Source: an uncultured Candidatus Saccharibacteria bacterium (GTDB lineage Bacteria; Patescibacteriota; Minisyncoccia; Ryanbacterales; HO2-45-13). Taken from it: a stretch of DNA of 41,374 nucleotides. Made by a program: the position numbers and the translations under genes. This document shows, piece by piece, positions 7,742-26,259 of this stretch. The first letter of the stretch is position 1. Every line of letters starts with the position of its first letter. The DNA lies in assembly GCA_964360995.1 (NCBI GenBank), contig CAYHYZ010000005.1, positions 1 through 41,374 on the forward strand. The letters are read 5' to 3'. The notes beneath the pieces were generated by a model. The model made no database searches and was not told the origin of the DNA. It worked only from the letters and a program-made list of their open reading frames with translations.

Positions 7742-7751
7742 GCACTCCATT

Positions 7752-8036
7752 GCCGAGGTAGCTCAGTGGTAGAGCGCATGCCTAAATCTTTGGGCCACGG
7801 CGTAGTAATACGCAGTGCAAATCGGGTGAATTCGGGGAAAACTCAATATTTTGAACAACCCCGAGCCAAGCCAGGCACTTTCATAAAGTGCTCGGAAGGT
7901 GTAGAGACTATCCTGTAAAGGAGTACTCTCCGAACGGAGGGGAAGCGCCCGACACCCTACTCGCAAGAGGGGTGATGATATAGTCCGACTCTTTTGGAAG
8001 AGCATGGCGTCGCGAGTTCAATTCTCGCCCTCGGCA
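7752..8036 (+). tRNA. tRNA-Phe(GAA), split by a group I intron (exons 7752-7783 and 7997-8036)
   Basis: Joined exons give a 72-nt cloverleaf: GCCGAGG/CCTCGGC acceptor, GCTC-AGTGGTA-GAGC D arm, CATGC/GCATG anticodon stem, loop CU-GAA-GA, GCGAG-TTCAATT-CTCGC T arm, discriminator A. CCA is not encoded. Confidence 0.85.
7784..7996 (+). ncRNA. group I self-splicing intron (IC3-like), no internal ORF
   Basis: The 5' exon ends in U33, which can pair as GCCU/GGGC (P1, U.G at the splice site). The last intron base is G (omega-G, 7996). The core strings CCGAGCCAAGC and GAAGGUGUAGAGACUA...UAGUC (P7 pairing) match my recollection of the Azoarcus/cyanobacterial tRNA introns. Confidence 0.85.
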
Positions 8037-8230
8037 CACGACAACCCTATAATCCCGGTAAGCCGAGATTATAGGGTTTCGTTTGTGGCGAGGAGAGCGA
8101 GCAACCTGCATTGCTCGCGACGAGAGTTGAAGGCCGGAGTATCCCCGCGAAGCGGGGCGCGAGGCGGGGTCGCAACCGAGCGCGATCACAAGCGAGAGTT
8201 GTGACCAATTGAGCCCTCGACACACGATAA
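8037..8230 (+). other. GC-rich structured element ending in a decayed copy of the tRNA-Phe 3' end
   Basis: Contains a perfect 12-bp hairpin (8043-8054/8068-8079), an 8-bp hairpin gcgagcaa/ttgctcgc, CCCCGC-GAA-GCGGGG, and GGTCGCAAC/GTTGTGACC, which needs a G.U pair only on the plus strand. The end gccctcgacacacgataa (8212-8230) repeats gccctcggcacacgacaa (8026-8044) at 16/18. Confidence 0.5.
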
Positions 8231-22401: not shown

Positions 22402-23250
22402 ATGCATGATCTGAAATCAGACATCGAGCAAGCACGTCTGGTGGGTATTATTGTCCCCCCCTCACCAACTCATGAGGCGCTTCTTGCCGCATTTGCGGTC
22501 AAAAAAGCTGCCGGAGAAAAAGGATTTCTGCTTGGCAATCCCGGTGTCACCAATGATCACTGGAATATGCTATTTAACGAGAAACTCCCTCCTCGCGATT
22601 TTGCGCTTACCGTCAACACTGCAGACATTCCGATTGAAGAACTCCGATATGAGCGCAAGGGCGATGCACTCACGGTATATTTTACAAGCTACCGTGAACT
22701 CGACACGCAACATTTTACATTTGAAGAAGCGCTCCCCGAATGCGATCTCCTTATTACCGTTGGATTTCCAAACACCGAAACCGAGCAGGAAACACTGCAA
22801 CGCATGTATCAAAATAAAACATACAAACACATTTCGATCGCACGATCGGGAGCGGCAACTGCAAAAGCGGGGAATCTGAAACTACTGTCTCGTATGTTGT
22901 TCCGCTCACGAGAGGAATTGGAACTAAACACACTCTGGTCATTTATCTCGCCAGACGACTTTTTAAAGACAGAAGCGACCCCAACCGACGCGCTTGCACT
23001 CGTGCCGTCAATGGAATCACTTTCCGGTGGCCCTGAGTTTATTGTGGTGTTATGGCAGGAACTCGGGCGTGATGTCACTGGGCTTGTACATAGTAGAAAC
23101 GAGCACGCATTACAGCAAATTGCCGCAAACTTGGGCGTTGCGCGCAGTAGCACACATGTGATGCTCCCCTACATGGGATCGTTTACCGAGGCCGAGCGCA
23201 ACGTACGAAAATTGCTGCTCTCCATGGGACTCGGTACAATGAAGTCGTGA
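22402..23250 (+). CDS. hypothetical protein translationally coupled to pilB
   Basis: ORF 22180-23250 trimmed to ATG 22402 (MHDLKSDIEQARLVGIIV). TGGTATAAG extended -10 lies 6 nt upstream. Its stop overlaps the pilB GTG start (GTGA). There is a vague NrnA/DHH-like layout, but no DHH catalytic residues are visible. Confidence 0.55.
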   Translation: MHDLKSDIEQARLVGIIVPPSPTHEALLAAFAVKKAAGEKGFLLGNPGVTNDHWNMLFNEKLPPRDFALTVNTADIPIEELRYERKGDALTVYFTSYRELDTQHFTFEEALPECDLLITVGFPNTETEQETLQRMYQNKTYKHISIARSGAATAKAGNLKLLSRMLFRSREELELNTLWSFISPDDFLKTEATPTDALALVPSMESLSGGPEFIVVLWQELGRDVTGLVHSRNEHALQQIAANLGVARSSTHVMLPYMGSFTEAERNVRKLLLSMGLGTMKS

Positions 23251-24923
23251 CGAACTTTTCGAAGTCCGACGATACCGACGCAAGACTAAAACGTGCACAT
23301 CTCGAGGAAGCGGAGAAGCTTGCCTCTGTTATGGCGGAGCGCTTCGGACTTCCGTATATCAATTTTCGCGTACTTCCTATTGATCTTGATGCGCTCAAAC
23401 TTGTTTCTGAGTCTGAAGCACGTCGTACCGGTATTGCAATATTCGAACGCGTGTCGAGAAAATTGCGCATTGCCGTAAAAAATCCAGAACTCCCCGCAAC
23501 GCAAGAAATGATTCAATCGCTCACAAAACAGCGCTTTCTCTTTGATTTATATTTAGTGTCACTCCCGTCGCTTGAACATGCGTGGAATAGATACGCCGAA
23601 ATTGTTACGGGGAATGATGCGCCCCCCGGAATCGTTGATATTGCGGTAGATCGTCTAAAAACATTTCAAGAGAATGTAGGATCAATTACAGACCTTGGGG
23701 CACTCATCACCACGGCCGCAGAAAACAGTGAAAAGTTTCGCGCAACAGATTTACTGGAACTTATTCTCGCAGGATCTCTTGCACTTGATGCCTCCGACGT
23801 ACATTTGGAGCAAGAGGAAAAACATACAGTGCTTCGGTATCGTCTCGATGGCGTACTCCACCAAGCAACCACCATTTCGAACGAAATATATAAACTATTA
23901 CTTTCTCGTATTAAGCTTGTATCGGAATTAAAACTCAATATTCACGACCGCGCACAAGATGGGAGATTTACGATTCGCCAATCAACTGGCGACATTGAGG
24001 TGCGCGTCTCTTCACTCCCCGGCCCAAACGGAGAATCGCTCGTGATGCGCGTACTCAATCCAAAAACGATTGCGCTTTCTCTTGAGGATCTGGGAATGCA
24101 ACGCCCGGTATACGAGCTCATCATCAAGGAGCTCGAGCGCCCAAATGGCATGATTGTTACCACGGGTCCCACGGGTTCTGGAAAAACAACAACGCTCTAT
24201 GCGTTTATTAAAAAAGTGCAATCCCCCGATATTAAGATTATCACCATTGAAAACCCTATCGAGTATCATCTCTCTGGTATTACACAAACACAAATTGACG
24301 CCGCGGGACATTATACATTTGAGACTGGTCTTGCGGCCATTCTCCGACAAGATCCCGATGTTATTCTGATTGGAGAAATCCGAAGCTTAGAAACTGCACA
24401 AACCGCGCTACACGCCGCACTTACCGGGCACCTCGTATTTTCAACACTCCACACAAACAATGCTGCGGGCACCATCCCTCGTCTTATCGATATTGGAGTG
24501 AAGCCAAATATTATTGCGCCGGCAGTGAATCTCGCAATTGCGCAACGTTTAGTGCGTAAACTTTGCAGTCACTGTAAACAATCATTCGCCCCGAACGCAG
24601 AGGAGCGCGCACGCATTGAGACAGCGCTACAAAGTATTCCAAAGGTACACGCGAGCATTATCCCAAAAGAGATCCTGATATGGCGCGCGCCGGGATGTAA
24701 AGAATGTACAACTATTGGATATAAAGGACGAATCGGTGTCTACGAAGCACTTCGCATTGATGATACGGTCGAGCGACTCATGCTTGGCACCCCATCTGAA
24801 GCGGATTTTTTTGAAGCAGGGCGCGCGCAAGGGATGCTCACAATGTATCAAGACGCAATGTTAAAGGTGATTGCCGGTGCAACAAGCTTGGAAGAAGTGG
24901 TGCGCGTCGTGGGGAGTGAATAA
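23247..24923 (+). CDS. pilB: type IV pilus / type II secretion assembly ATPase (PilB/GspE family)
   Basis: N-terminal T2SSE_N-like LPYINF, Walker A GPTGSGKTTTLYA, Asp box, Walker B DPDVILIGEIR, His box TGHLVFSTLHTN, tetracysteine CSHC...CKEC. Confidence 0.93.
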   Translation: MTNFSKSDDTDARLKRAHLEEAEKLASVMAERFGLPYINFRVLPIDLDALKLVSESEARRTGIAIFERVSRKLRIAVKNPELPATQEMIQSLTKQRFLFDLYLVSLPSLEHAWNRYAEIVTGNDAPPGIVDIAVDRLKTFQENVGSITDLGALITTAAENSEKFRATDLLELILAGSLALDASDVHLEQEEKHTVLRYRLDGVLHQATTISNEIYKLLLSRIKLVSELKLNIHDRAQDGRFTIRQSTGDIEVRVSSLPGPNGESLVMRVLNPKTIALSLEDLGMQRPVYELIIKELERPNGMIVTTGPTGSGKTTTLYAFIKKVQSPDIKIITIENPIEYHLSGITQTQIDAAGHYTFETGLAAILRQDPDVILIGEIRSLETAQTALHAALTGHLVFSTLHTNNAAGTIPRLIDIGVKPNIIAPAVNLAIAQRLVRKLCSHCKQSFAPNAEERARIETALQSIPKVHASIIPKEILIWRAPGCKECTTIGYKGRIGVYEALRIDDTVERLMLGTPSEADFFEAGRAQGMLTMYQDAMLKVIAGATSLEEVVRVVGSE

Positions 24924-24950
24924 TATATTTCTAAACAATAATATTTATAG

Positions 24951-24986
24951 AAAAAAATATTCCAGGCATCCCTGGAATATTTTTTT
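24951..24986. terminator. bidirectional terminator after pilB
   Basis: Perfect 16-bp palindrome aaaaaaatattccagg / cctggaatattttttt with loop catc. Confidence 0.8.
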
Positions 24987-25011
24987 GTTGCGCGCACAGT
25001 ATCGCTGGTGA

Positions 25012-25195
25012 TATAAAAATAAAAAATTCCCTCCAGAAGTCCCTAGGTAATTTGTCCCACCGAAGCAGGACGGAGCGCCTCTTCGAGGAATGGCCCAGCA
25101 CTTCCCGACAAGTCGGGACGCCAGATCACCCATGTACTAAAAGCGGCGCAGATAAGGATAACCTTAATTACCTAGAGGCTCCCACAGGGAATCAG
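25012..25195 (-). ncRNA. candidate ~175-nt rod-shaped structured RNA (6S-like architecture; family unassigned)
   Basis: A ~27-bp closing helix pairs the region around 25166-25193 with 25026-25053. Internal helices GUCCUGC-UUCG-GUGGGAC and CUGGC/GCUGG need G.U pairs that exist only in the minus-strand transcript (they are C.A on plus). The closing helix is followed by UUUUUUAUUUUU on the minus strand. Confidence 0.55.
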
Positions 25196-25224
25196 TAAAT
25201 ATGCTAGGCTAATGTTAGCAGAAT

Positions 25225-26259
25225 TTGATGCGTATGTCAAGCTCCGAAAACGACATTTCGACCCCAGGATCTCACTCTACGCTCGACGTGACGCTCCGTC
25301 CGCAGACGTGGGATGAGTACATTGGGCAGGAACAGATTAAGAATACGCTCCGTATTCTCATTGAAGCTGCCACAAAGCGTAGCGAGCCGATCGAGCACGT
25401 ATTGTTCTACGGCCCCCCAGGGCTTGGCAAAACAACGCTCGCGCATTTAATCGCGCGCGAGATGCATGCGCAGATGAAAATTACATCTGGTCCCGCTATT
25501 GAGCGCGTGGGGGATCTTGCGTCGCTACTGACCAATCTCTCTCCGGGAGACGTGCTCTTTATCGATGAAATCCACCGTATGAATAAGCTCGTCGAAGAAG
25601 TTCTCTACCCTGCGATGGAGTCGCGCACGATTGATATTATTATTGGGAAGGGGCCGTCAGCGCGCACCATTCAATTAGATCTCCCTCCATTCACATTACT
25701 TGCCGCAACGACGCGTGCAGGGCTTCTTTCAAGCCCATTGCGCTCACGATTCTCTGGCGGCGCATATCGGCTTACATTCTACGACCCGAGTGAGATTGAG
25801 CGTATCGTGCGCAGATCCGCTCGTGTGCTCGGCATTCCAACCGATGATGATGCCATTCTTCTTATTGCCGAGCGCAGCAGGAGAACGCCACGTATTGCAA
25901 ACCAACTTTTAAAACGCTGCCGTGATGTCGCAACCGTATCGGGGAGTGATCATATTACCAAAGATGCGGCGGTGAAAGCATTAAAACTCCTTGAGATTGA
26001 CGAACAAGGATTGAATGCGGAGGATCGTAGACTCCTCGAGGCGCTGATCGTAAAGTTTCGTGGAGGCCCGGTCGGAGTGAGCACTCTTGCTGCAGCAATT
26101 TCCGAAGACACCAGCACCATTGAAGAGCTATATGAACCATACCTCTTGCAACTTGGCTTTATTGAGCGCACACCGCGCGGTCGCCTTGCGACATCTCACG
26201 CATATGCGCACATGGGGATCTCTCTTCCGGAAGGACAGCCGCCCCTCATCGCCTCGTAA
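25225..26259 (+). CDS. ruvB: Holliday junction branch migration DNA helicase RuvB
   Basis: [16 protein letters not shown], Walker [17 protein letters not shown], Walker B LFIDEIHR, sensor and winged-helix C-terminus. The first ATG is at 25228. Confidence 0.96.

Follow-up and report, generated by a model that had tools for sequence, protein, structure and literature searches.

A conserved structured RNA encoded between pilB and ruvB in Paceibacteria-type Patescibacteria, close in layout to 6S RNA

6S-like RNAs and the RNA gene between pilB and ruvB

The described RNAs closest in layout to the one reported here are the 6S RNAs (RF00013), in particular 6S-1 of the Firmicutes (bsrA of Bacillus subtilis and the 6S RNAs of Lactobacillales). 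6S RNA has a largely unstructured central bubble, the single-stranded 5' side of which serves as template for short product RNAs (pRNAs), and the free form of Firmicutes 6S-1 combines a hairpin in the 3' side of the bubble with an open 5' bubble (PMC8876501). The region templating the pRNA is highly conserved across Lactobacillales, and the 6S genes of Firmicutes adjoin rarA, a gene for a recombination-linked AAA+ ATPase, which is divergent from the 6S gene in B. subtilis (PMC8414754). Here we analysed a stretch of 41,374 nucleotides (nt) from an uncultured Candidatus Saccharibacteria bacterium (contig CAYHYZ010000005.1; the whole stretch is called the window below), in which the gap between pilB and ruvB encodes a small structured RNA on the minus strand.

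We found that this gap contains a real minus-strand gene (25013-25205) for a structured RNA of ~180 nt, and both the nature of the gene and the fold of its RNA are nearly certain. The minus strand of 25005-25200 folded to -80.9 kcal/mol, compared with -57.7 +/- 4.5 kcal/mol for 200 dinucleotide shuffles, none of which folded as well (z = -5.18). The plus strand of the same stretch reached only -59.0 kcal/mol (z = -3.18). The RNA was assigned to the minus strand because its fold on that strand includes 14 G.U pairs among a total of 66, and the family covariance model R1, described below, scored the minus strand at 158.9 bits and the plus strand at 29.7 bits. These results agree with an initial annotation of this DNA, which had been made from the sequence and had proposed a stand-alone minus-strand RNA containing G.U-bearing helices valid on that strand; the RNA is now placed at ~175-190 nt, with its own promoter and with a closing helix doubling as terminator. 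The helices then described were all present to within 1-2 nt, including the long closing helix (P1 below, 25 pairs), the inner helices GUCCUGC-UUCG-GUGGGAC and CUGGC/GCUGG and the GCGCC/GGCGC stem, and the U-run into which the closing helix had been said to run (UUUUUUAUUUUU, 25026-25015) is located directly after P1. The comparison with shuffled sequence, which had been named as a possible refutation, likewise came out in favour of the fold.

In the window, P1 pairs 25193-25167 with 25051-25025 through three segments separated by two 1x1 mismatches, and the stretch from its first to its last base is 169 nt long (146-202 nt across the family). Its top, CUCUAGGUAAU, is the counterpart of the near-invariant family motif CUCUAAGCAAU. 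P1 carries a short variable hairpin (P2), a long apical arm (P3) and a further hairpin (P4), all listed in Table 1, and the middle of P3 is a version of the family motif AGGACG..UGGU / ACUG..CUAUCCU, bearing a tandem U.G/G.U. The 16-22 nt on each strand outside the main helix, which had been taken for a central bubble, were found to be the two hairpins P2 and P4 at a closed junction.

The RNA shares several features with 6S RNA. Both are encoded by stand-alone genes of ~150-200 nt that are driven by a sigma-70-type promoter and occur as a single copy throughout a lineage, and both are rod-like, with a closing stem formed from the 5' and 3' ends and an apical stem-loop. As in 6S-1, a hairpin is located on the 3' side of the centre (P4, 25054-25071), and it covaries in both of our alignments; as in Firmicutes, the gene lies beside a gene for a recombination-linked AAA+ ATPase, ruvB here and rarA there. 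Unlike 6S RNA, the centre is a closed four-way junction, the 5' side of which is the P2 hairpin in 62 of 75 members and ~5 nt where P2 is absent. P1 is near-perfect with a near-invariant top, whereas the closing stem of 6S is described as irregular and variable in sequence (PMC8876501). The arms of 6S are also described with small loops and bulges (PMC8876501); in the present RNA, P3 has internal loops and mismatches, and P1 of the window contains two 1x1 mismatches. The 6S-like architecture proposed in the initial annotation was therefore retained for the overall layout, which is nearest to that of Firmicutes 6S-1. It was not retained as membership in the 6S family, since the two defining features that were tested, a match to the model and an open bubble, both failed.

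Other structured RNAs resemble this one in part. Ms1 RNA is ~300 nt long and has a different fold. It is a 6S-like RNA that binds the RNA polymerase core, and is reported to have been found across most Actinobacteria by a gene-synteny search (PMC9130861); Ms1 and the present RNA are alike in being lineage-specific structured RNAs where 6S is not found by homology. The raiA-motif, OLE, ROOL and GOLLD RNAs are likewise strongly covarying, wide within a lineage and without coding potential, but they are in Rfam and none of them matches; the present RNA is smaller than OLE, ROOL and GOLLD, occupies one genomic position and has its invariant parts in helices. The 4.5S RNA of the signal recognition particle (SRP; RF00169/RF01854) is likewise small and of a universal type, and conserved internal irregularities also occur in its long hairpin arm, but its domain IV motifs are absent here and no Rfam match was obtained. 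Bacterial Y RNAs (YrlA/Yrn1) share the long closing stem from both ends and a branched, cloverleaf-like module at the far end, but tRNA-like T-arm or D-arm sequences are lacking in the present RNA, and no Rfam Y RNA matched. The Ro-binding helix of Y RNAs, with its bulged C, is without a counterpart in the ruvB-linked RNA.

Searches against Rfam release 15 at the gathering threshold, including the 6S model RF00013 suggested in the initial annotation, gave no match at the RNA in the window and none in 20 homologous loci. At E<=10, nothing relevant was found in 24900-25300 of the window, in 14 further loci, or in short slices of two loci (L003 and L076), for which the Rfam search filters are laxest. 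Neither SRP RNA nor RNase P RNA nor transfer-messenger RNA (tmRNA) was matched at this threshold, in line with the initial annotation, in which no signature motifs of these three had been found. Low-scoring matches to BSnc120, Plastid-psbM, rli38 and other families were spurious and located on the A/U-rich pilB terminator hairpin (24937-25040), and a low match to Xist_exon1, a model without structure, was also spurious. The literature that we searched contained no description of a 6S RNA in bacteria of the Candidate Phyla Radiation, nor of any ruvB-linked RNA. All these indicated that the RNA family matches no catalogued family, and filing it as 6S is not supported.

Occurrence, fixed position and covariation of the family

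Using the RuvB of the window, we gathered 80 loci from species-representative genomes. All were Patescibacteria of the Paceibacteria/Parcubacteria type, and many carried the organism label "uncultured Candidatus Saccharibacteria", a generic name given by depositors; one of them, locus L016, was 90% identical. A search with the single RNA sequence by nhmmer found only four homologues, and a covariance model was needed for the remainder. This model, R1, was built on an alignment (A2) seeded with the window and the four nhmmer homologues. The window, itself one of the five seeds, matched R1 at 25025-25194 on the minus strand with 158.9 bits (E 1.8e-41, model positions 1-173), and non-seed members scored 30-120 bits. 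With default filters, 74 of the 80 loci contained a full-length match on the strand opposite to ruvB and directly upstream of it. With the filters off, the RNA was also found in five of the remaining six, which gives 79 of 79 testable loci, the sixth having just 138 nt upstream.

Sampling was also started from the RNA. Metagenome contigs were scanned for the pattern CTCTAAGYAAT-N(100-130)-ATTRCTTAGAG, which matched at least 120 contigs, of which 80 were examined. Among the matches listed, R1 confirmed one RNA, never two, in each of 76 loci, and tblastn located ruvB divergently upstream in all 66 loci with enough room (600 nt or more) and pilB convergently downstream in 54 of the 57 with 900 nt or more. 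Because this RNA-first sampling shows the same order, with pilB converging on the RNA gene and ruvB diverging from it, the order is a property of the RNA and not of the choice of loci. These results showed that the family occurs as a single copy per locus, fixed between pilB and ruvB in Paceibacteria-type Patescibacteria.

An exact 30-mer of the window had no match in genome contigs. The motif at the top of P1 was absent elsewhere in the window and, in 1.39 Mb of loci, occurred only within the RNA gene, so that nothing in the loci scanned points to an antisense target or a DNA operator nearby. In one locus (L077:1591-3001), the only one seen in which the RNA is not directly beside ruvB, an open reading frame (ORF) of 308 codons is located between the two (1971-2897, on the strand of the RNA).

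To describe the conservation of the fold, we used a model-based alignment of 67 sequences and a second alignment of the RNA-first metagenome set. In the former, 87.9% of cells were paired, against 41-50% when the partners were slid by 1-3 columns, and double changes occurred in 54 of 60 pairs. The covariation score was 0.563, against at most 0.138 in the slid controls, and none of 500 shuffles equalled the observed values. The covariation in homologous pilB-ruvB spacers, named as a check in the initial annotation, was thus strong. The RNA-first set replicated this result, with 87.1% paired against 40-47% and double changes in 46 of 60 pairs among the matches listed; as the search pattern includes the top of P1, that part is invariant in this set by construction. 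More than 130 other sequences keep the structure through compensatory changes, and it is therefore more than a chance fold of the window. When folded singly, 62 of 75 members adopted the same architecture, in which three arms branch from a closing helix. From a plain MAFFT alignment of the 75 members, RNAalifold recovered only P1, and the model-based alignments were used instead.

The centre of the family is a closed four-way junction, and all four arms are present in the window. The median linker lengths are 0 nt for J1/2, 2 nt for J2/3, 2 nt for J3/4 and 0 nt for J4/1. P1 was 96.5% paired, with double changes in 17 of the 18 pairs of its main segment. At the top of P1, the 11-13 base pairs (bp) adjoining the junction are nearly invariant (UCUCUAAGCAAU / AUUGCUUAGAGA), with compensated variants in the window and in L016 (CUCUAGGUAAU / AUUACCUAGGG), and at the bottom the sequence varies freely and pairing is kept. 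The sequence of P2 is unrelated between members and its length ranges from 10 to 48 nt, and the segment nevertheless folds better than shuffles (mean z -2.0). In locus L055 (2745-2946), P2 is a perfect 48-nt hairpin. It is missing in ~5 of 75 members, including L002-L004 (Giovannonibacteria) and L078 (Kaiserbacteria-labelled), which leaves a three-way junction.

P3 consists of a variable base, an internal loop and then an invariant distorted helix, A-GGA-C-G-Y..UGGU / ACUG..Y-U-A-UCC-U, which contains a conserved C.A mismatch, a pyrimidine-pyrimidine mismatch and tandem U.G/G.U pairs; in the window, a U-A pair takes the place of the C.A mismatch. P4 has 8-9 bp with the consensus CUUUUGG..CCAAAAG, and was 91-94% paired, with double changes at every pair. 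Hairpin loops across the family are of the UUCG/CUUG type or variable, and no conserved single-stranded stretch of at least 8 nt was seen among family members.

Several other identities of the sequence were rejected. A small-protein gene does not fit, as the longest sense-strand frames have 26-61 codons (median 43) and substitutions follow the pattern of paired RNA. A DNA palindrome or a miniature inverted-repeat transposable element was ruled out because R1 scores the two strands unequally (158.9 and 29.7 bits), G.U pairs are present and the element is single-copy at a fixed locus. A dispersed repeat was ruled out by the single copy and by the absence of the motif elsewhere in the loci scanned. 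For a phage element, four related IMG/VR contigs (L201-L204) match the inverted repeat only, are rejected by R1 and contain neither ruvB nor pilB. In these four contigs (for example at L201:1048-1173), the 11-nt inverted repeat, CTCTAAGTAAT ... ATTACTTAGAG, as in the top of P1, spans 126 nt; the viral-contig repeat sits at the start of an ORF beginning MQKLLFIAPHLSTGG / MQKLLFIAPHLSTGGLPQY, and was judged a chance match.

Promoter, terminator and transcripts

The RNA gene is preceded by a near-consensus sigma-70 promoter, TTGACA-17-TAACAT (25240-25212, minus strand), which has 10 of 12 consensus matches and a TG before the -10 element (TGnTAACAT). Transcription probably starts near 25205, as deduced from the position of the -10 element. 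The -35 element of the RNA gene falls within the first codons of ruvB (TTG at 25225, ATG at 25228 and 25234). A candidate -10 hexamer of ruvB (25205-25210, plus strand) and the -10 hexamer of the RNA gene (25217-25212, minus strand) adjoin on opposite strands, so that the two promoters appear to interlock, and their occupancy by polymerase should be mutually exclusive. From the candidate -10 element, the leader of ruvB would be ~10 nt long and without a Shine-Dalgarno sequence. Back-to-back TG-extended -10 elements similar to those of the window are visible in other family loci. Across the family, a perfect TTGACA was present within 110 nt upstream in 82 of 155 loci and a TG-extended -10 element in 126 of 155, and the distance from the end of the -10 element to P1 ranged from 6 to 82 nt (median 40). 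The interlocked promoters alone could explain the permanent linkage with ruvB, and the synteny with ruvB is therefore weak evidence of a functional link.

At the opposite end of the gene, P1 and the U-run resemble an intrinsic terminator. The consensus terminator scan misses this terminator-like 3' end because the stem exceeds its length limits, and a U-run at the end of P1 is also found in many family members. Between the pilB stop codon and the U-run of the RNA, an A/T-flanked hairpin, AAAAAAATATTCCAGG-CATC-CCTGGAATATTTTTTT (24950-24988), looks like a bidirectional terminator and accounts for the spurious matches to BSnc120 and Plastid-psbM.

No RNA run was found that holds the RNA of the window, and three estuary metatranscriptomes of a related study contained nothing even at 80% likeness; no RNA run was found for family member L026 either. 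Relatives of the Kaiserbacteria-labelled member L078, at roughly 90% identity or more, were present in metatranscriptomic and RNA-seq assemblies, and the matches cover exactly the RNA (2735-2880 of that locus). The samples were activated sludge, sludge, soil, freshwater, marine sediment, wastewater, a hypersaline lake and runs labelled with a single organism. Some of these contigs are little more than the RNA (154, 151 and 165 nt) and keep the full-length P1. These sightings are compatible with a discrete, relatively abundant transcript but do not prove one, because the contigs are strandless and may stem from carried-over DNA, and others extend into the flanks.

Table 1 Coordinates of the RNA gene, its promoter, its helices and the neighbouring genes in the window
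Feature	Position	Strand	Basis
-35 hexamer of the RNA gene, TTGACA, inside the first ruvB codons	25235..25240	-	promoter scan
Extended -10 of the RNA gene, TGCTAACAT	25212..25220	-	promoter scan and sequence
Predicted 5' leader of the RNA	25194..25205	-	start at ~25205 deduced from -10 position
P1, 5' strand, GAUUCCCU.UGGGAG.CUCUAGGUAAU	25167..25193	-	fold, covariation
P2, short variable hairpin, UAAGG-UUAU-CCUUA	25153..25166	-	fold
P3, long apical arm	25075..25149	-	fold, alignment column make-up, pair counts
P3 base, GCGCC/GGCGC	25149-25145 with 25079-25075	-	fold
P3 middle, GGGUG.UCUGGCG with UGCUGGG.CAUUC	within 25075..25149	-	G.U-rich
P3 helix UCUGGCG/UGCUGGG, containing CUGGC/GCUGG	25125-25119 with 25100-25094	-	fold
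P3 tip, UCCCGA-CUUG-UCGGGA	within 25075..25149	-	fold
P4, hairpin GUCCUGC-UUCG-GUGGGAC	25054..25071	-	fold
P1, 3' strand, AUUACCUAGGG.CUUCUG.AGGGAAUU	25025..25051	-	fold, covariation
U-run, UUUUUUAUUUUU(AU), directly 3' of P1	25013..25026	-	sequence
Candidate extended -10 of ruvB, TGCTAGGCT	25202..25210	+	read from sequence
ruvB, divergent neighbour	25225..26259	+	context
pilB/gspE-type ATPase gene, convergent neighbour	23247..24923	+	context

Elsewhere in the window, a tRNA-Phe(GAA) gene (7742-8040, plus strand) contains a group I intron at 7774-8004 (Rfam Intron_gpI, 69.2 bits). Its upstream exon reads GCCGAGGTAGCTCAGTGGTAGAGCGCATGCCT and its downstream exon GAAGAGCATGGCGTCGCGAGTTCAATTCTCGCCCTCGGCA, which apparently places the insertion in the anticodon loop, after position 33 and before position 34. 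The split gene is missed by ARAGORN.

Candidate functions and significance of the RNA

As to function, we tentatively put first a role in trans, in which a stable and abundant RNA would bind a protein as a decoy. The likeliest partner would be the RNA polymerase-sigma-A holoenzyme, in the manner of 6S-1. P3 would then play the part of the upstream ("-35-like") duplex, P4 that of the 3'-bubble hairpin and the conserved top of P1 that of the downstream duplex, the 5' strand of which would template a short product RNA. The predicted product RNAs would read AUUACCUAGAGGC..., and would differ from the 3' strand of the RNA itself, AUUACCUAGGGAC..., at the G.U positions. A 6S-like role is suggested by the size, the strong housekeeping-type promoter, the single copy and the lineage-wide presence, and by the closing stem and apical stem with a 3'-side hairpin, which may be compared with B. 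subtilis 6S-1 (PMC8876501). The best-conserved sequence is a helix strand adjoining the centre, where 6S has its pRNA template, which may point in the same direction, and the synteny of rarA and 6S in Firmicutes is a weak parallel to that of ruvB and the present RNA (PMC8414754).

Several observations weigh against such a polymerase decoy. No 6S model matched the window or 36 homologous loci, even at E<=10. The centre is closed, with linker medians of 0/2/2/0 nt, and the 5' side, a single-stranded template in 6S, is here a stable hairpin, perfectly paired over 48 nt in L055, or is reduced to ~5 nt in Giovannonibacteria-type members. 6S arms are described with regular bulges (PMC8876501), which are missing from the near-perfect A-form duplex of P1, and known pRNAs have been noted to carry GG at positions 4-6 (PMC8414754), which the predicted product RNA lacks.

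Nearly as likely as the polymerase decoy, and possible rather than probable, is that the RNA belongs to a dedicated ribonucleoprotein (RNP) of Paceibacteria unrelated to RNA polymerase. Its protein would read the top of P1, the junction and the distorted P3, and the RNA would scaffold, sequester or guide that protein. Invariant sequence in helical and partly non-canonical segments, namely the top of P1 and the middle of P3, is typical of protein-recognition sites, and the closed junction, the dispensable P2 and the lack of similarity to any Rfam family would also fit a dedicated RNP. No candidate partner gene was found, however, the only constant neighbours are pilB and ruvB, and RNA polymerase itself could be the protein in question.

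A trans-acting RNA that senses a ligand or is catalytic, with the tandem wobbles and mismatches of P3 as a metal or ligand pocket, appears unlikely. The invariant non-canonical pairs of P3 and the strong structural conservation would be expected of such an RNA, but no same-strand gene is located downstream to be regulated, as the terminator faces the 3' end of pilB. In addition, conserved single-stranded loops and pseudoknot candidates were not found, the loops being of the UUCG/CUUG type or variable, and Rfam, ribozymes and riboswitches included, gave no match.

The constant neighbourhood of ruvB (66 of 66) and pilB (54 of 57), which holds even in RNA-first sampling among the matches listed, together with the long duplex arm and the closed junction with its 0-2-nt linkers, would suit a new class of housekeeping RNA that mimics a Holliday junction or branched DNA and titrates or tunes RuvA, RuvB or RuvC, or that couples DNA uptake through the pilus (pilB) to recombination. 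We consider this quite unlikely. The proposal is built purely by inference, and the interlocked promoters explain the fixed synteny without a functional link. Proteins specific for junctions would have no use for the invariant sequence of P1 and P3, and to our knowledge no RNA ligand is known for RuvA and RuvC, which are DNA-junction proteins.

It is very unlikely that the locus is mainly a cis-acting module, in which a strong divergent promoter sets ruvB expression by competition, a hairpin terminator insulates pilB from ruvB and the RNA is a by-product. The adjoining -10 hexamers on opposite strands, the -35 element of the RNA gene in the first ruvB codons and the similar back-to-back TG-extended -10 elements in other loci are in favour of this module. 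A by-product would, however, not keep 60 pairs via hundreds of compensatory changes, nor the invariant non-canonical pairs of P3, and P1 begins anywhere from 6 to 82 nt after the promoter.

A very divergent SRP 4.5S RNA, RNase P RNA, tmRNA or 5S ribosomal RNA missed by the Rfam models, as could be imagined for a universal, single-copy and strongly promoted RNA, is highly improbable and largely refuted. The domain IV signature of SRP RNA (E. coli 4.5S) consists of a GNRA tetraloop, a symmetric loop (AGG / AGCA) and an asymmetric loop, none of which is present in P3. The tip of P3 is instead a 6-bp stem capped by CUUG/UUCG, with a 2-nt bulge and a wobble-rich helix, and none of the SRP, RNase P, tmRNA and 5S families matched at E<=10. 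Size and topology are unfit for RNase P RNA, tmRNA and 5S ribosomal RNA. SRP RNA was rejected on the absent domain IV motifs, the lack of an Rfam match and a lineage reported to be without SRP, Parcubacteria having been reported without ffh and without the 4.5S RNA gene (ffs), which also counts against the SRP reading (PMC4508563).

Paceibacteria (Parcubacteria), which are ultra-small members of the Candidate Phyla Radiation, are among the largest uncultured bacterial radiations, with genomes below 1 Mb that are reported to have shed even SRP (PMC4508563). The RNA is kept at one position, as one copy per locus, with a strong promoter and invariant helical motifs, and it is very likely to be important to the cell. 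As a model, a consensus fold, a fixed locus and over 150 sequences now define the family, tests on RNA made in vitro are possible without cultures. If the RNA mimics a DNA junction, it would represent RNA-tuned recombination or uptake in bacteria thought to depend heavily on scavenged DNA. If it is the equivalent of 6S, a closed junction, and not only an open bubble, would be able to trap polymerase, and the definition of 6S would be widened. If it is not 6S, it would be a new housekeeping RNP or regulator in a lineage with almost nothing known of its RNA biology.

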